20,865 bases of DNA from a virus, in UHGV virus genome UHGV-1781188. One strand, 5' to 3'. Position numbers and translations under genes: made by a program. Below, piece by piece: positions 1-20,837 of the stretch. The notes beneath the pieces are model-generated. The model was given only the letters and a program-made list of their open reading frames with translations, did no database searches and was not told where the DNA came from. Each line of letters starts with the position of its first letter. Within the stretch, counting starts at the first letter, position 1.

Positions 1-22
1 ACCACACAAAGAGAGAAAGAAA

Positions 23-241
23 ATGACAACCCGTAAAATTAAAGTTGTTTGCATTGAATCGACTGGGGGCGCTTTTGTAGTTGGTCAGGAATATAATGCG
101 GTTTTAATGGGTACGGATTGGAAGGTTAAAGGCCTTAATGGTTACGAGTACGGCACTACTTGCGGCTTGCGTGGTCGAATCGGATACGTGAGTTTAGACA
201 ATAAAGAAAAATTTGTTTTCGACACCCTTGTGAGTAAATAG
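23..241 (+). CDS. hypothetical protein (72 aa)
   Basis: ATG at 23 preceded by purine-rich SD-like stretch (agagagaaagaaa); intact ORF; no recognisable motif. Confidence 0.55.
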   Translation: MTTRKIKVVCIESTGGAFVVGQEYNAVLMGTDWKVKGLNGYEYGTTCGLRGRIGYVSLDNKEKFVFDTLVSK

Positions 242-318
242 CATGAATTGCTAAAGACTGATCTGCGAACTGCTGTATTATCAACTAATCAAAACGAACC
301 ACATAAAGAGGAAACATC

Positions 319-582
319 ATGAAACGTCTGGATCAGCTTAAATTAGTTCAGTACATGGCCTACAGAATTCTTGAAGTCCAAAAAGGTAGCAAAAAAGAGG
401 TTTGCGAGAAAGCTTATAAGATCTTTACCCGCAAAAAAGATGACTGGATGCTACGCCAGACCAAAAAGGCTGACATCTTGGGGTACCTGGAAGAAGAGAT
501 CCGCCTTGAAGAGCAAGAAGAGATCCGCCGTAGTGAGGCAGATTATCAGGCAGCTTGGGAAAGCTGGATGAGTAACAAATAA
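319..582 (+). CDS. hypothetical Lys/Glu-rich protein (87 aa)
   Basis: ATG at 319 with SD aaagagga about 7 nt upstream; charged helical-looking sequence. Confidence 0.6.
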   Translation: MKRLDQLKLVQYMAYRILEVQKGSKKEVCEKAYKIFTRKKDDWMLRQTKKADILGYLEEEIRLEEQEEIRRSEADYQAAWESWMSNK

Positions 583-597
583 TACAACAAGTTGCAC

Positions 598-626
598 GAT
601 CAGGGGGGCAATAAAGCCCCTTGATC
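598..626 (+). terminator. imperfect GC-rich hairpin downstream of CDS 319-582 (weak terminator candidate)
   Basis: gatcagggggg / ccccttgatc arms around a 7-nt loop; no clear U-tract. Confidence 0.25.
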
Positions 627-650
627 ACATAAAAATTATGCTATCCTTGG

Positions 651-679
651 TTGACAAGGATCGGCAGTTTTGCTATATT
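651..679 (+). promoter_or_regulatory. sigma70-type promoter
   Basis: TTGACA (651-656), 17-bp spacer, TATATT (674-679), about 50 nt upstream of CDS 729. Confidence 0.55.
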
Positions 680-728
680 CTTTTTTGAAGGGAAGTTGTA
701 AGAAAATTAACTAAGAGGTAAAAACACC

Positions 729-1148
729 ATGAACATTAAATCTAATAATCCGGCATATAGCTTTGATAACGCTTTTTGTCACGGTCCGGCGGCGAAAGGA
801 TTCGAAATCGATGGTAAACTAATTATTGTCAATGTTGACGGGGAAGAGGTTGCAGTATATCCGGTGGCAGACGTTAAAAGCCGTTTGCAATGCCGCATGG
901 ATGTTACCGCCTACCAGCTTGATCCGGTCCGCATAGTTGCCCTGGTCCTGGAGGAAGAGATCAAAGCCATGCATCATAGCAACAAGTTTATCGGTGACGC
1001 GCAAGATAATATGAAGGTATGCCGCTATAAAGTTAATGAAGTGCTTAAAGAATATGGCTTCAAAGATCTGATGATCAAGCGTGATGAAAAATTCCGTTAT
1101 CGTAACGACCTGGCAAATCGAATCTATGAAATATACGAATCATTATAA
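729..1148 (+). CDS. hypothetical protein (139 aa)
   Basis: ATG at 729 with SD taagaggt upstream; intact ORF followed by terminator. Confidence 0.65.
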   Translation: MNIKSNNPAYSFDNAFCHGPAAKGFEIDGKLIIVNVDGEEVAVYPVADVKSRLQCRMDVTAYQLDPVRIVALVLEEEIKAMHHSNKFIGDAQDNMKVCRYKVNEVLKEYGFKDLMIKRDEKFRYRNDLANRIYEIYESL

Positions 1149-1166
1149 TTTCTTAACTAAACTATC

Positions 1167-1199
1167 AGGGGCTTTAAAAGGCCCCTTTCTTTTTGTCTG
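1167..1199 (+). terminator. rho-independent terminator
   Basis: GGGGCTTTT / AAAAGGCCCC near-perfect hairpin followed by tttctttttgtc. Confidence 0.6.
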
Positions 1200-1802
1200 T
1201 ATTTCTCCTACCACAAACGGCCCAGCCTGGCAAGTGGAATAATTGACTAGCCATCAATCCAACACACTGTACAAACATACATGTAAAATAACTATTGCAT
1301 AATTTTTCATTGTGTGGTAGCAGGTCCATTTTTACCCGCTTTTCCTTCCAAAACTGCATGCAATTCCGCTATTGCACAAAATTTAACCTGATGCACAATA
1401 TCTCTTTCTTGTCAACAACTAAAAATCTTTATAAGTCATACACTTACATAACTACAAAAGCGTGTTCTACGTGAAAAATCGAGTATAACTATAGCCGCCA
1501 GATCTCAGAATTTACGTACGCTCACCATTCTATAGCCAGCTAAGTATTTATTCCGACCATAGAATAACGGAATAGTCAATATCTGCATAAAATAATTATT
1601 CGTGTAAACTGCATAACATAAATCAGCTCAGGTGTCAACATTTTTCGTAAACAGTCCGAAATTATCACGATGAGTTATCATAAACAGAGAAATCTTTAGT
1701 CGTCTAATGTTTACTGTACATTACTATACTGACTGGAATCATTAGATGACTAAGAGAAAGATAAGAAATAATTAATAGTGTAATTATTTTACCTGTAACA
1801 AT

Positions 1803-1980
1803 AAGGCAACTATGCAAACGAATGGCATGGCGCGACGGAGTCGCGACATAATATAAAAGCAGTAACCATCACCCCCGTGATAGTTTGTCTGCAATCTATT
1901 AATCAGATCATAGTTGCCTTGTATTTAGTTAATCATGACATAACAAGCAAGGCAACTATAGATCTTCTAATAGTTGCCCT
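1803..1980. repeat. 11-bp iteron AAGGCAACTAT, four copies in alternating orientation
   Basis: direct at 1803-1813 and 1949-1959; reverse-complement ATAGTTGCCTT at 1910-1920 and ATAGTTGCCCT at 1970-1980 (1 mismatch). Confidence 0.6.
1812..1831. repeat. 20-bp direct repeat, copy 1 (ATGCAAACGAATGGCATGGC)
   Basis: identical 20-mer recurs at 2073-2092. Confidence 0.7.
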
Positions 1981-1996
1981 GCTTTTATATTATGTC
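1845..1996. repeat. 18-bp perfect inverted repeat pair flanking the iteron cluster
   Basis: GACATAATATAAAAGCAG at 1845-1862 and its exact reverse complement CTGCTTTTATATTATGTC at 1979-1996. Confidence 0.7.
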
Positions 1997-2013
1997 ATAG
2001 AAACACCCGAAGG

Positions 2014-2030
2014 GGTGACCAAAGGTCACC
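2014..2030. repeat. perfect palindrome GGTGACC-AAA-GGTCACC
   Basis: 7-bp arms, 3-bp spacer; flanked by cccgaagggg. Confidence 0.6.
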
Positions 2031-2072
2031 TGGCATAGCCAGCGAAAGATTATTAACTTGCTAATCGTTATC

Positions 2073-2092
2073 ATGCAAACGAATGGCATGGC
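2073..2092. repeat. 20-bp direct repeat, copy 2 (ATGCAAACGAATGGCATGGC)
   Basis: identical to 1812-1831; followed by TTATAAT. Confidence 0.7.
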
Positions 2093-2183
2093 TTATAATT
2101 TTTGAGCAAATAGTCTATACGTGAACAGTGAGGCATGCAATAGTAACAATTGTTATTGTATCCAGTGTGTTGAGTATGCCCAG

Positions 2184-2221
2184 TGTGTCACTATTATGTC
2201 ATATTATGTCACAGTATGTCA
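2184..2221. repeat. four helically phased short repeats (TGTGTCA, then TATGTCA x3 at 10-bp period)
   Basis: TGTGTCA 2184-2190; TATGTCA at 2195, 2205, 2215; TGACATA (reverse) also at 1936-1942 and TATGTCA at 1991-1997. Confidence 0.6.
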
Positions 2222-3536
2222 GACAAGTTTTCCTCCTCTTTGTCAAGTGCTGCATGAAAAATTTACAAACTGGTATGGTAGCATTTTTGCGGCCCTGTTT
2301 ACATTCAGTAATGTATGTATAATCCTTGTTGTGTGGGCGTTTAGACGTCTAGACGGTCAGAAGTCCGCAGGTCAATAACTAATCTATCGGCTGCTAACTA
2401 TATCCCACACAAATAGTAAGAAATATAATTGTTATGTGTGTAAACAGTAACTCATGTTATCAATCCCTGTATGGATCGCCAGTGGTGCGCATAATGGGTA
2501 TTATGTTAAATTGCCCGTAATGATAACAGTTCTCACAATGATAGGTATTCTCATTCACCCCCACAAGATAGGTTGCAAATGTTGTGCCACTGTGTGAACG
2601 GCCTCACCTATTAATTTGCCTCACTGCCTCGATATTTGAGAATTGTTATAAGAATGAGAAGTATTCCCATTTCGTCCGCCTGGCAGCACTCCAGTCGCTA
2701 CCGGCTCCTGACAGGGAGGCACTCCTGTCGGTCAGGTCAAAATCATGGTATAACTGGACCTGTTCAGATATTTCTGGCTGGCTCTTCAGGTCTGTGTGGG
2801 AAAAGCCAACCTCTCAGGCGGGGCAGGGGGGTCATGACGGGAAAATTGCAGGTCAATTAAAAAATTTACGTGGTGTATGAAGCGCTCTTCAGGTAAGGCA
2901 TGTATTATGGGATGAAACCCTCTTCAGGCAATGATATTTGTGGGTGTGATATTTGCTGGAAAGCCAGATATGACGGGACTCCCGGCTGGGCAGGGGTAGT
3001 ACAGACAGGGGAAATATGGAGGATGTAGTTGGGTGAGTTGATCAGACAGGTTGGGTATAGATATGTTACAAGTATGTTAAATATGGAGGGTGAATATCTG
3101 TAGGATTTATGTGTAAAATCAAAGACTTAAGTGGTGTTGTGGTATTTTCTATAAATAATTCAAGTTTAATAGGTAATATTTGTCTCTGTCCGCTTTGTGT
3201 GGTAAGCAAATTCAGATGGTGTTGGTTTACAAGTGTATACATAATATACAAATTAAAGATACAAGAAACCCCCCTCCCCCTTCGGCTACCATTCACCTTT
3301 TCCTCTGACTGGTACTTAAACACTTATTCAGACTCTTCAGGTTATCACCCATATATCATATGGCAGTGACTGGTGTCCTCCGGCCCCTCTTTCGTCACCC
3401 GTCCGCTTCGCCATGCTAATGCCATAGCCAATGGTTCGGTTGTTCACCCTGTTCACTCAGGTGTATCTCCATACCCCTTCAAACCGAAGAGAACAGAAAA
3501 CCCGAATTACTCGGTAAAAGAAAAGAGAAGAACTTA

Positions 3537-3564
3537 ATTTTATCAGGATAGGCAAGAATGTCAA
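3537..3564 (-). promoter_or_regulatory. sigma70-like promoter directed into the non-coding region
   Basis: minus strand TTGACA (3564-3559), 16-bp spacer, TAAAAT (3542-3537); no convincing CDS downstream. Confidence 0.4.
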
Positions 3565-3691
3565 GGCATGACTGCTCACTAAACAAGCAAACAGTCATGT
3601 GTGGGAGGTAAGTGATTGTGGTGGTAGGAAATTTAGTTGAAAGATGTGTTATAGGTGCTTCCAGCACTTTAGCCGGGCAGCTAATTGTGTG

Positions 3692-3907
3692 TCAGTCCAG
3701 CGGTTCATCCTCTACTTCACTGAAATCAATGTTCATGGTCTCTTCCCAACCATCGATCTCAGCACAAGAGTGGAGTTCTTTAGGGTTTACTCCCAAAGCC
3801 TCAGCAACAGAGTCTATATTTAACACCTCTGGCAGGTATGATTCATCGAATTCAAGGTAAATCAGGCCACGAGTGTTGTCAGCTCCACCAAATATCTCTA
3901 TCTTCAT
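3692..3907 (-). CDS. small acidic protein (71 aa), MKIEI-type N-terminus
   Basis: ATG with SD agaggaga upstream; acidic C-terminus; N-terminus resembles other MK(I/V)(E/K)I genes in the block. Confidence 0.6.
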   Translation of the reverse strand: MKIEIFGGADNTRGLIYLEFDESYLPEVLNIDSVAEALGVNPKELHSCAEIDGWEETMNIDFSEVEDEPLD

Positions 3908-4026
3908 AAAATCTCCTCTGGGAATGAGAGTGTGAACAGGATTATACGTCCAAATGCGCAGGAATTATGCACGTTTGCCTCTTCAGGCCATGCTTTAGCA
4001 TGAGGAACCTGTGTGGGCTCGGTGCT

Positions 4027-4239
4027 TCATAGTCTACCACCTCTGAACTCTTCGTGCTCAGGCATAATAGAGAACCAGATATCTACGATGTCCTCCCACG
4101 TCAGGTCATCAGCCTCAGGATCTGTCTGGGACGAAGATGAAGAGTCCTCAGAATCTAAGTTTTCCTCTTTAACTGGCTCATCCAAGGGACATATGGTCAC
4201 TCCTTCGGATGTCTCTTCAGATGCATGTGTGTTGATCAT
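4027..4239 (-). CDS. highly acidic Ser/Asp/Glu-rich protein (70 aa)
   Basis: internal ATG of track ORF 4027-4440; ATGA overlap with the upstream small peptide; about 20 D/E versus 3 K/R. Confidence 0.5.
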   Translation of the reverse strand: MINTHASEETSEGVTICPLDEPVKEENLDSEDSSSSSQTDPEADDLTWEDIVDIWFSIMPEHEEFRGGRL

Positions 4240-4337
4240 GTTCCACCTGTGAGTATTCCGGCAACAGCCGCTATGGACGTAATGATCATCAGGATCACCA
4301 CTAAAACTTCGGACAATGTTCTCATAGTGTATTCCAT
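4236..4337 (-). CDS. small hydrophobic peptide (33 aa, one predicted TM helix)
   Basis: MEYTMRTLSEVLVVILMIITSIAAVAGILTGGT; SD ggaga 5 nt upstream; promoter 4358-4386 just upstream; stop overlaps the next start (ATGA). Confidence 0.45.
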   Translation of the reverse strand: MEYTMRTLSEVLVVILMIITSIAAVAGILTGGT

Positions 4338-4357
4338 ATTCTCCAAATGATGTGTGG

Positions 4358-4386
4358 ATATTATCACTGGAGCTGTAATGTGTCAA
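4358..4386 (-). promoter_or_regulatory. sigma70-type promoter
   Basis: minus strand TTGACA (4386-4381), 17-bp spacer, TAATAT (4363-4358). Confidence 0.55.
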
Positions 4387-4555
4387 TAGAAACGCCGCGA
4401 GGGTTTGGTTAAAATCCGAGCGTATGGTGATTTGGGTCAAAACGGACGTGCGTTCTCGCTACGCTCGAAATATGGAGTTGTTTGTAGGAAGCTCTTAAAC
4501 GCTCTGTAACGAGATTATCTGTCCAAGGTATGCAATCGTGCACCAGACAAAGAAA

Positions 4556-4575
4556 AGGACGCCACAGAGCGTCCT
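4556..4575 (-). terminator. rho-independent terminator
   Basis: aggacgc / gcgtcct stem, 6-nt loop; on the minus strand followed by ttttctttg; directly after CDS 4600-4899. Confidence 0.6.
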
Positions 4576-4599
4576 AGGTGTCTTAAATTTGATATTTTG

Positions 4600-4899
4600 C
4601 TATACCCATGAGGGCTTATCAAGGTTGGAGTAGCTAAAAGGTGTCAAAAGGTGACTGTCAAAATCTCTCAAACTATCCAAATCTTTTTCCTCGTCCTGAC
4701 ACCATCTGTGCCTACATTTATTGTTGTAGTGCATAGAATGCATAGCGTTCTGCAACTTAACAGGCACAAGTGATTCAGGAGTAGTTAGTATTGTTGGGTA
4801 TGCCAGAACCACCTCAAACAGTGGAAACACATCGAAACTAAAGTCTACCTCTGCAGAGGTTGATGGCATGTAGGAGTATTTAGCCGCCTTTGTAGACAT
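4600..4899 (-). CDS. hypothetical protein (99 aa)
   Basis: start moved to MSTKAAKY (SD gaggtgg upstream), which overlaps the stop of the upstream gene. Confidence 0.55.
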   Translation of the reverse strand: MSTKAAKYSYMPSTSAEVDFSFDVFPLFEVVLAYPTILTTPESLVPVKLQNAMHSMHYNNKCRHRWCQDEEKDLDSLRDFDSHLLTPFSYSNLDKPSWV

Positions 4900-4907
4900 A
4901 ATCCACC

Positions 4908-5240
4908 TCACACAGGTTTGATAATACCTTTACCGAATAACTCTTCGTATCTAATCTTGTCCGGATCCCACTCCTGGATAATTTCGAAGACAATATCCAA
5001 CCCGGGAACAATCACTTCTCCAGTGTCAAGCTTAGCAAGAACAAAACCGGAAGGTTGAATGGTTTCCCAGTTACGGCGATCAGAATAAAATACTTCGAAA
5101 ATATCGCCAACCTCAATCCGTTTCTGTTGCTCAAGATGCTCAAGGTTCTCTTTCATACGGATGCAGCGTATTTTTCGTGCAGGCCATAGACCACCTGCAT
5201 CACGTTCATTCAATTCTTTTACAGTGATCGGTATACCCAT
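4908..5240 (-). CDS. hypothetical protein (110 aa)
   Basis: start moved to MGIPITVKE (SD ggaggaga 6 nt upstream); the track start lies inside the terminator hairpin. Confidence 0.6.
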   Translation of the reverse strand: MGIPITVKELNERDAGGLWPARKIRCIRMKENLEHLEQQKRIEVGDIFEVFYSDRRNWETIQPSGFVLAKLDTGEVIVPGLDIVFEIIQEWDPDKIRYEELFGKGIIKPV

Positions 5241-19541: not shown

Positions 19542-20837
19542 TCAGCAACCACAACTTCCGTAGTGCTTAACCCGTTCTATAACTTCCGCTTGCTTACCTT
19601 TATTGTAAGGACGGGAGTTTGGACTAGACAGGTACCCGGATACACGTCTGATCACACTGATCGTTCCCTCTTCATGGTTTCCACACTCTGGGCATACAAA
19701 GCCTTTAGCTGTTGCACTAAACTCACCAGAGAAACCACACTTGAGACATTTATCCACAGGTTGGTTAATACCAAAATACATAATGTGTTTATACCCGAAG
19801 TCAACAAGAGCCTCTAAAGCATCCAGGTTGTTTTTCAGATTTGGTGTCTCTACGTATCCGATGTTGCCACCAGAGGAGATCATAGCAAAACCTTCTTCAT
19901 ACTTCCACTTATCAAAAGGAGAGCTATTGATCCATACTGGCTGATGGAAACTGTTGGTGAGATATTCATGCTCGTGCTTCAACACTTCAGGATATTCACG
20001 ATCCAGACAGGTTGCAGCTTTATAGCATAGGCTCTCAGAAGGGGTGCCGTACAAGCTAAATGCTAGTCTACTTTCCTTCTTGTATCGCTCACAAGCATCT
20101 CTCATGTGCTGAAGGATTCCAAGAGCTAAAGCCTTGTCACCCTCTCTGCCCAAAATCTGACAGGTTTCATACACACCAATATACCCAATACTGATGGAAG
20201 CGTACCCGTCATAGAAGAGTTTATCAATACTCTCTTCAGGATCCAGGCGAGCAAGAGCGCCTTCACACCACATGATAGGGTTCTGCCCTGCCTTGGTGCC
20301 TTTCAGACGGTTAACCCTTACAAGGTGAGCCTCGTATGCAAGATCCAGATACTCGTCAAGAACGGCAAAGAAATCAACACCTTCCGTCTTAGCTTTTGCC
20401 GCAATCATTGGCAGGTTAAGACTAACAACACCCAAGTTGAATCTGCCGAGGTATTTCTCCTCGCCTGTTTCCAAGTCATTGTATTTGCTAAGAAAACTCC
20501 GGCAACCCATGCTCGTTACTTTACCATCTGTCGAGCCTGTCACTTTACGATTTAGTGGAACAGAAACAAAGTCAGGATAAATCCGCTCTGCAGAGCATTC
20601 CAGAGCTAATCGTTTCAAATCATAGTTAGGATCTCCAGGGTTCATGTTGACACCCTCTTCTAGGAAGAACAGCACTTTAGGGAACACAGGTGTGATACGT
20701 TCTTCACCAAGACCCATTTTGTGGACTTTCAGGTAGTTTTTGGTAATCATTCTACCAAAGACCGAGGTATCCAGTCCTAAACTCAATGTGATGAATGGAG
20801 TCTGCTGTCTCCTCCCTGTGTTTCCACAGGGCCAGAC
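19542..20837 (-). CDS. nrdD: anaerobic ribonucleoside-triphosphate reductase, C-terminal ~430 aa (5' end lost at contig edge)
   Basis: glycyl-radical motif RRVSGY near the C-terminus; C-terminal Cys cluster CLKC...CPEC; ITPVFPKV...EEGVN...DPNYD...LALEC parallels T4/E. coli NrdD; the frame stays open from 20786 to the adapter junction. Confidence 0.9.
   Translation of the reverse strand, partial: VWPCGNTGRRQQTPFITLSLGLDTSVFGRMITKNYLKVHKMGLGEERITPVFPKVLFFLEEGVNMNPGDPNYDLKRLALECSAERIYPDFVSVPLNRKVTGSTDGKVTSMGCRSFLSKYNDLETGEEKYLGRFNLGVVSLNLPMIAAKAKTEGVDFFAVLDEYLDLAYEAHLVRVNRLKGTKAGQNPIMWCEGALARLDPEESIDKLFYDGYASISIGYIGVYETCQILGREGDKALALGILQHMRDACERYKKESRLAFSLYGTPSESLCYKAATCLDREYPEVLKHEHEYLTNSFHQPVWINSSPFDKWKYEEGFAMISSGGNIGYVETPNLKNNLDALEALVDFGYKHIMYFGINQPVDKCLKCGFSGEFSATAKGFVCPECGNHEEGTISVIRRVSGYLSSPNSRPYNKGKQAEVIERVKHYGSCGC

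Follow-up and report, generated by a model that had tools for sequence, protein, structure and literature searches.

The virus genome UHGV-1781188 was analysed as one stretch of 20,865 nucleotides (the window), with the 9-mer CTCTTCAGG as the element under study. The window belongs to a Vequintavirus, an rV5-like Escherichia coli myovirus, and showed 87–98% identity to ~120 GenBank records. The rV5-like phages (Vequintavirinae) are widely isolated and are candidates for therapy and biocontrol. Between two convergent gene blocks lies a region without genes, and a cluster of five exact copies of the 9-mer was found in this region and upstream of gene 3907–3692 at its right border. On the rV5 map the gene-free block was drawn as a grey 'non-coding' box without explanation (PMC3606486, Figure 2 legend), and these 2.5 kb have remained unexplained since the rV5 genome paper. 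The genome termini can now be placed in the block, and two elements persist there across genera in otherwise unalignable DNA, namely a host-type dif site inside the direct terminal repeat (DTR) and a polar array of 9-mers on one side of that repeat. The coordinates are collected in Table 1.

The ends of the genome were located by comparison with the complete genome Gotham (137,025 bp), in which the annotated repeat_region (1–459 and 136567–137025) matched window positions 2222–2680 at 95.6% identity. The same block also forms the exact start or end of six more records, which come from other laboratories. All virions were previously described as carrying 459-bp terminal repeats with the same start sequence (PMC7471380). 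By these matches, the gene-free block is the part of the genome that holds the physical ends of the virion DNA. The mapping also means that the window shows a concatemer junction, running from the right-arm genes through the array, the DTR and the left-arm non-coding DNA to the left-arm genes. Other packaging modes have been published for the subfamily: phiTE and PVP-SE1 were reported, from restriction digests, to be terminally redundant and circularly permuted, and one Vequintavirus was reported to package by the headful mode on the basis of PhageTerm (PMC3475682, PMC13211470). In contrast to those reports, Gotham and at least six other records share identical fixed 459-bp repeats.

Table 1. 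Features of the terminal region and copies of the 9-mer, in window coordinates
Feature	Position	Strand	Remarks
Gene-free terminal region	1149..3691		~2.5 kb, between convergent gene blocks
Tandem 10-mers ATTATGTCAN, three copies	2193..2222	+	abut the left DTR boundary
DTR, 459 bp	2222..2680		one copy in the window, as a concatemer or a circular assembly would show
dif-like Xer site GGTGCGCATAA-TGGGTA-TTATGTTAAAT	2484..2511	+	inside the DTR; array on its XerD-arm side
CTCTTCAGG copy 1	2782..2790	+	102 bp outside the right DTR boundary (2680)
CTCTTCAGG copy 2	2885..2893	+	first unit of the 35-bp tandem duplication 2877–2946; 205 bp past the DTR boundary
CTCTTCAGG copy 3	2920..2928	+	second unit of the 35-bp duplication 2877–2946; 240 bp past the DTR boundary
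CTCTTCAGG copy 4	3333..3341	+	within the near-invariant non-coding block 3275–3650; 653 bp past the DTR boundary
CTCTTCAGG copy 5	3979..3987	+	upstream of gene 3907–3692 (-); 1299 bp past the DTR boundary
CTCTTCAGG copy 6	20232–20240	+	inside the 414-aa open reading frame 19542–20786

All five plus-strand copies that an earlier, sequence-only reading of the window had listed were found, together with a sixth copy at 20232 that it had overlooked. As that reading had described, four of the five lie in the gap without open reading frames (ORFs) and the fifth lies upstream of gene 3692–3907; the minus-strand TATAAT that it had put at about 35 bp from the fifth copy occupies 3946→3941, 32 nt from the copy at 3979. 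An exact-match count over the 20.9 kb gave no CTCTTCAGG on the minus strand, and an unbiased word count returned CTCTTCAGG as the top repeated 9-mer of the gene-free gap. The further argument that five copies are unlikely by chance was borne out by 100 dinucleotide-preserving shuffles of the whole window, which averaged 0.18 copies and never exceeded 2, so that none reached the observed 6. The five clustered copies are co-oriented and all lie on one side of the DTR, 102–1299 bp beyond position 2680, with three of the five less than 250 bp from the boundary. No copy was found inside the DTR or in the 1 kb of non-coding DNA on its other side.

Successive copies in the cluster are spaced by 103, 35, 413 and 646 bp. 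An extended-motif comparison found no conserved flanks common to the five copies, and the 9-mer is thus the whole unit, with the exception of the copies at 2885 and 2920 in the 35-bp duplication. The earlier suggestion that the word might belong to a degenerate longer repeat therefore applied to these two copies and failed for the set of five. At the copy at 3979, GCCTCTTCAGGC forms a small (4-bp) palindrome. The copy at 20232 is probably a chance occurrence; its Gotham homologue sits in a gene annotated as the large subunit of anaerobic ribonucleotide reductase. CTCTTC is the recognition site of EarI and CTGAAG that of Eco57I, and a coincidence with these restriction sites was considered and set aside, as it leaves the one-sided cluster unexplained.

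The complete Gotham genome contains nine copies of CTCTTCAGG, eight in the orientation of the cluster and one opposite, and Markov models gave an expectation of ~1 per strand. Five of the nine lie within 1.2 kb beside the right-end terminal repeat. The other four are all intragenic (three in the cluster orientation and one inverted), and no copy was found at other intergenic regions or promoters of the 137-kb genome. The motif is thus not common genome-wide, a trivial explanation for which the sequence-only reading had allowed, and the Gotham count together with the shuffles leaves the cluster unexplained by composition or codon usage.

Conservation of the copies within the genus was followed in an alignment of 14 Vequintavirus genomes. 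The five copies were kept in nearly all of them, with three single-genome point changes altogether: copy 2 reads ATCTTCAGG in L005, copy 3 reads CTCTTCAGA in L009 and copy 5 reads CCCTTCAGG in L010. Copy 1 was invariant in the 14 genomes and the positions adjoining it at -1 (G/A) and +1 (T/C) were polymorphic. Variable columns made up 3 of 45 in the motif, whereas the flanks within 30 nt had 62 of 266 (Fisher p=0.009) and the non-coding DNA around them had 352 of 1084 (p=1e-4). In one genome (L006) a 46-bp insertion at column 3978 directly abuts copy 5, which was unchanged. Insertions of ~50 bp at 2832 in two relatives (L006 and L013) contribute to a spacing of copies 1 and 2 that varies between 82 and 157 bp among the genomes, showing that the exact spacing is not conserved. 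At the level of this alignment, the CTCTTCAGG copies were shown to be under purifying selection.

The second element, the dif-like Xer site, lies inside the DTR with the first 9-mer 270 bp away. E. coli dif is GGTGCGCATAA-TGTATA-TTATGTTAAAT (PMC3025954), and the phage site agrees with it at 26 of 28 positions, with both 11-bp arms identical and the two changes in the central hexamer. Of 5426 complete E. coli genomes, 5403 gave a single match to a 56-nt dif query, and both Xer arms were invariant across the 14 aligned phage genomes. Related dif-like sites were found in phiTE, Av-05, TH18 and phages of Salmonella, Serratia and Klebsiella, representing genera of the Vequintavirinae. Across those genera the XerD arm was invariant, the XerC arm read RGTGCGYATAA, and the central hexamer was CGTGTA, CGTGTT or GGTGTA but never the TGTATA of the host. 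Every one of these other-genus sites lies in a gene-free gap of 1.5–2 kb, and in the Klebsiella phage DP the site is likewise inside the annotated terminal repeat, which there is 514 bp long.

No paper containing the phage dif-like strings was found in the searchable literature, in which the phages described as exploiting Xer/dif were all filamentous, gokusho- or non-tailed ones. Of the two elements, the dif-like site in the DTR is perhaps the more surprising. Every virion DNA has two dif-like sites in direct repeat and could therefore be circularised by XerCD, much as P1 DNA is by Cre/lox. In P1, a loxP site in terminally repeated DNA is recombined by Cre to cyclise the injected linear DNA, and the recombinase is encoded by the phage. 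The site described here is similar in lying within the DTR, so that there are two direct copies per linear molecule, and differs in that the phage would have to borrow XerCD from the host. The arrangement suggests that XerCD would mediate circularisation or the processing of junctions in this virulent myovirus, while exchange with the host chromosome would be disfavoured by the divergence of the central hexamer. We found no earlier case of a virulent tailed phage that exploits the Xer system of its host, and this would be the first, provided that the dif site is used.

A BLAST search at 'distant' sensitivity matched the terminal region within Vequintavirus only, and between genera the alignable parts were the dif-like site and, with the Salmonella phage, ~45 bp at the start of the DTR. 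The neighbouring 71-aa protein anchored only three loci in relatives, and the attempt to anchor them by the predicted regulator phrog_639 failed because synteny differs in other genera, which left the dif-like site as the working anchor. The loci of the other genera were therefore oriented on this site, and the strict pattern for the 9-mer family was set to CWCTTCAGG.

Relative to the dif-like site, members of the family in other genera share the strand of the window copies and lie on the side of the XerD arm. Klebsiella phage DP has CACTTCAG(G), the top repeated 8-mer there, at +549, +903, +1330 and +1382, and Salmonella phage GEC_vB_MG has CACTTCAGG or CTCTTCAGG at +406, +776, +800 and +828. 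The Serratia phage ChuuTotoro carries CTCTTAAGG, CTCTTTAGG and CTCTTCAGG, while phiTE carries two CTCTTTAGG. Strict CWCTTCAGG copies in the quadrant defined by the dif-like site numbered five in the window (Poisson P 7e-11), four in GEC_vB_MG (P 5e-9) and three in DP (P 2e-7), and there were none on the opposite strand or the other side in any of these three. In DP, where the ends are defined, no copies were found inside the DTR or in the 2.5 kb past its other boundary. The adjacent genes in ChuuTotoro are on the other strand and the copies keep theirs, which shows that the orientation of the motif follows the DTR and dif and not the neighbouring genes.

An independent set was obtained by scanning IMG/VR for dif-type sites, which gave 120 loci. 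In the 14 loci with the Vequintavirinae-type hexamer there were 17 strict copies in the quadrant given by the XerD side and the plus strand, while the remaining three quadrants held 0, 0 and 1. In the rest of the set, 106 loci whose hexamers are host-type or different, that quadrant (122 kb) was free of strict copies. From these counts, the array is a subfamily-wide, polar and one-sided companion of the DTR/dif region, and related arrays recur in Seunavirus, Mydovirus and related IMG/VR contigs. Taken with the individual phages, the comparison of sequences has shown that at least three genera, between which the flanking DNA cannot be aligned, have kept CWCTTCAGG in one and the same place with respect to the DTR and dif. 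A scan of IMG/VR for two 9-mers 15–45 nt apart gave matches at about the number expected by chance.

These results bear on the simplest explanation, that the copies have no function and are leftovers of local duplication or chance. The location of the copies at 2885 and 2920 in a 35-bp tandem duplication is what such an origin would produce. However, the shuffle and whole-genome statistics, the variability below that of the flanks and the retention of position and strand in unalignable DNA all stand against it, and we give it hardly any credence: the lack of a function is effectively refuted by the conservation across genera.

The array has the form of a short asymmetric unit without flanks that is polar, one-sided, located just outside the repeat, absent elsewhere and kept in unalignable DNA, and this combination points to a DNA-level protein site that is tied to the genome end. 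Quite possibly, and this is the reading we prefer, a protein binds the CTCTTCAGG copies as polar sites, and they thereby flag the concatemer junction for packaging or for processing of the terminus. A protein would recognise the polar CTCTTCAGG sites on one flank of the junction, on the XerD-arm side and just outside the DTR, and their likeliest user would be the genome-end machinery, either in recognition by the terminase or small terminase or in processing of the concatemer junction during packaging. Position and conservation make the array a genuine, conserved signal of the genome end, whereas we infer its exact job, that is, both the binding of a protein and the process that is served. The sequence-only reading had offered three options, and the comparison favours the one of a packaging or recombination signal. 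By its location, abutting the DTR with the dif-like site, one-sided, polar and shared across genera, the array suits that option best.

The preferred reading has a parallel in phage T7, where CCTAAAG arrays of one orientation flank the terminal repeat. Counted on the T7 sequence, CCTAAAG occurs 22 times on the plus strand and three times on the minus strand, and 16 of the 22 plus-strand copies are in or abut the 160-bp terminal repeats, with three in each repeat, eight to the right of the left repeat (175–332) and two to the left of the right repeat. One of the last two, at 39700, reads CCTAAAGAG, which is the phiTE 9-mer on the minus strand. The rV5 family reads CCTGAAGAG or CCTGAAGTG on the minus strand and thus has the core CCTRAAG in common with the CCTAAAG of T7. 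Both systems have a short exact DTR, fixed ends and co-oriented short asymmetric words in non-coding DNA at the repeat boundary. In T7, however, there are arrays on both sides and three copies inside the repeat, at a spacing of 13–54 bp, whereas here the copies are on one side at a spacing of 35–646 bp, none is inside the DTR, and the other side carries ATTATGTCAN. To our knowledge, T7 is without a dif-like site. Polar short repeats by a phage terminal repeat are therefore a kind of element already known; what sets the present array apart from that of T7 is its confinement to one side, its greater length and its coupling to a dif-like site. The likeness suggests that such repeats may be general in phages with short DTRs.

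Arrays recognised by other packaging enzymes were also compared. The lambda cosB R sites, the SPP1 pacL/pacR boxes and the P1 pac hexamers each consist of several short copies beside the cleavage site that defines the end. The proximity of three of the five 9-mers to the DTR boundary (<250 bp) resembles these, but the other two are 0.65 and 1.3 kb off, and the orientation and spacing patterns differ from each of the known arrays. A further sequence that could be involved at the repeat's opposite end is its first ~45 bp, which can be aligned between genera (window 2222–2269, GEC_vB_MG locus L148 2733–2776, DP locus L145 1–40) and contain TTGTCAAG ~20 nt from the boundary. The conserved start of the DTR suggests a cleavage or recognition sequence at that end.

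Several points weigh against a role of the array in packaging or terminus processing. The copies at 653 and 1299 bp from the DTR boundary are far away for a terminase site. The array is one-sided and absent from the repeat, unlike in T7. Searches of the complete Gotham genome with T7 gp18 and gp19 gave best tblastn E values of 0.67–1.8, that is, no detectable similarity, and the likeness to T7 may thus be convergence or coincidence. For the short repeat arrays of T7 (SRL/SRR) no function is established as far as we know, and the analogy accordingly supplies no mechanism; literature searches on that function and on pacB gave nothing usable. Av-05, with three copies, and TH18 carry the shifted variant CCTTCAGAG in place of the strict motif. 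Some copies overlap sigma70-like promoters or hairpins, neither of which is required by a pure packaging signal, and the packaging mode in the subfamily has been reported inconsistently, both as circularly permuted and as headful.

The overlap with promoters raises the alternative of an operator, in which a phage or host regulator would bind CCTGAAGAG on the minus strand and control promoters that fire toward the genome end, including that of gene 3907–3692 and of a possible non-coding transcript. In DP, two of the three strict copies are inside good sigma70-like promoters (TTGACCTGAAGTG-N10-TATTCT/TATACT). In the window, CATAAT lies 10 and 9 nt downstream of the copies at 2920 and 3979, the copy at 2920 overlaps a weak minus-strand sigma70-like promoter (TTGCCT-16-CATAAT), and the copy at 3979 is 32 nt upstream of the TATAAT before gene 3907–3692. 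A strong sigma70-like promoter on the minus strand (3564→3537, TTGACA-16-TAAAAT with TG) is directed toward the DTR and reads through the copy at 3333. A regulator would also be at hand, since the predicted regulator phrog_639, which is conserved and present across the subfamily, is encoded 1.3 kb away.

A regulator site was among the proposals of the sequence-only reading, and the part that stood is the overlap of 4 of 12 strict copies with sigma70-like promoters. A fixed spacing to promoters, for which it had proposed a test, was not seen: a -10-like hexamer lies 9–10 nt downstream in those 4 and is missing at that spacing in the other 8, and the motif was accordingly not assigned to the sigma70 elements or their operators. 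The 137-kb genome has many predicted promoters and no other intergenic or promoter copies, the strand of the motif in ChuuTotoro tracks the DTR and dif and not the flanking genes, and in other genera the regulator gene is unlinked to the terminal region. With this balance, an operator is possible but would not be our expectation.

The dif-like site offers a different partner for the array. The polar 9-mers could load or orient a factor on the XerD-arm side, such as an Xer activator, an FtsK-like translocase or an architectural protein, so that the dif sites in the DTR recombine and circularise the genome or process junctions without control of the host type. FtsK activates Xer recombination from the XerD side, and FtsK-orienting polar sequences (KOPS) are polar with respect to dif. 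Similarly, the window combines a 28-bp site having arms identical to those of E. coli with polar 9-mers that are all on one side, and the array invariably lies on the side of the XerD arm. The array accompanies only the Vequintavirinae-type dif (17 copies compared to 0 in 106 other loci), and together with the dif-like site it is the only element of the gap that is conserved across genera. On the other hand, the 9-mer is unrelated to KOPS (GGGNAGGG), which are not enriched, as Gotham has 10 on the plus and 8 on the minus strand compared to 8.4 expected per strand, and the local GGGNAGGG copies near the motif are not conserved. The accessory sequences of cer and psi, which span about 150–200 bp and contain ArgR/ArcA and PepA sites, adjoin the XerC arm within ~200 bp, whereas the array is on the XerD-arm side at 270–1500 bp; ArgR and ArcA boxes were not searched for. 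The array is therefore placed with neither KOPS nor the cer/psi accessory sequences. In addition, because the array is outside the repeat, a virion DNA has it beside one of its two dif copies and not beside the other, and we know of no precedent. An accessory role in Xer recombination thus seems rather unlikely.

A broader form of this idea would join the array and the dif-like sites of the DTR into one module that borrows the host Xer/FtsK system. The dif pair would turn the injected genome into a circle or act in the processing of concatemer junctions, with the polar CWCTTCAGG copies as phage-specific sites for loading, orienting or accessory functions and the altered hexamer as a block to recombination with the host chromosome. 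We consider a module of this scope unlikely. The dif site and the array are concrete targets for mutation in studies of how the genome ends are recognised and processed, and both can be used to orient assemblies.

Replication-origin iterons in the terminal non-coding region were another possibility, given the clustering and common orientation of the copies, the AT-rich stretches of the large gene-free region in which they lie and the occurrence of origins near the genome ends in other DTR phages. Iterons would be expected as regularly spaced, helically phased units of 17–22 bp beside an AT-rich unwinding element and a gene for an initiator, whereas the unit here is 9 bp, the spacing is irregular (103/35/413/646 bp) and there is no helical phasing. 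An adjacent initiator gene is absent. The change in GC skew coincides with the switch in the direction of transcription (PMC3606486). Iterons are for these reasons improbable.

The strong minus-strand promoter at 3564→3537 also allows a reading at the RNA level, in which CCUGAAGAG would act in non-coding transcripts toward the genome end, for example as a protein-binding or processing signal. This promoter would transcribe the copy at 3333 and possibly those at 2920–2782. The non-coding block 3275–3650 was ~100% invariant in the 14 genomes, compared to 92–97% conservation in the neighbouring genes, and is a candidate non-coding RNA or other cis element. Moreover, DP and the Salmonella phage each have a copy that serves as the loop of a GGAGCC/GGCUCC hairpin, and the copy at 3979 has its 4-bp palindrome. 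Most copies are without a hairpin context, however, and the copy at 3979 is upstream of the transcript and not inside it. The candidate minus-strand transcript 3532→3255 gave no folding signal (z = -1.1), and an Rfam scan of positions 1–5000 (E<=1) returned only a weak unrelated suhB match at 1133–1201, with nothing relevant in a tRNA scan. An RNA motif is thus a doubtful explanation to which we attach little weight.

Two specific RNA elements were rejected. A hammerhead ribozyme, considered for its CUGANGA core on the minus strand, had no Rfam match and neither GAAA nor stem context. The boxB of lambda nutL contains CCCTGAAGAAGGG and boxA is CGCTCTTA, but a usable stem for a nut-like element was present only at the copy at 3979 and at one copy each in DP and the Salmonella phage, and no pairing of boxA with boxB was found; the resemblance was put down to coincidence.

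In DP (L145, 1600–1700) and GEC_vB_MG (L148, 3750–3850), a homologous composite was observed on the minus strand. It consists of a GGAGCC-TGAAGT-GGCTCC hairpin holding one copy of the motif, followed by TCTAAAGWG-GCACATC... and then a TTGAC -35 box. In DP, a further copy of the motif shares sequence with this TTGAC box (TTGACCTGAAGTG-N10-TATACT), and a gene lies a short way downstream. Among the nine ORFs neighbouring the terminal region in the window no Pfam domains were found, and PHROGs gave a function to only one of them.

The non-coding DNA on the other side of the DTR has features of its own. The tandem ATTATGTCAN 10-mers at the left boundary differ strongly in number and sequence among otherwise 95%-identical genomes, an extra copy is present at 1988, and the 10-mers have TATTATGT in common with the XerD arm of the dif-like site. 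A near-invariant block at 1800–2000 is dense in inverted repeats, with an 18/18 pair at 1845–1862 and 1979–1996 and pairs of 12–15 nt at ~1910–1984. The perfect 20-nt direct repeat ATGCAAACGAATGGCATGGC occurs at 1812 and again at 2073 (2073–2092).

Finally, TGTGTGGG was locally enriched, at 2330, 2793, 3598 and 4010 on the plus strand and at 2404 on the minus strand, and it trails motif copies 1 and 5 by 3 and 22 nt. With 20 copies across Gotham (12 on the plus and 8 on the minus strand), this word is common and far less specific than the 9-mer.

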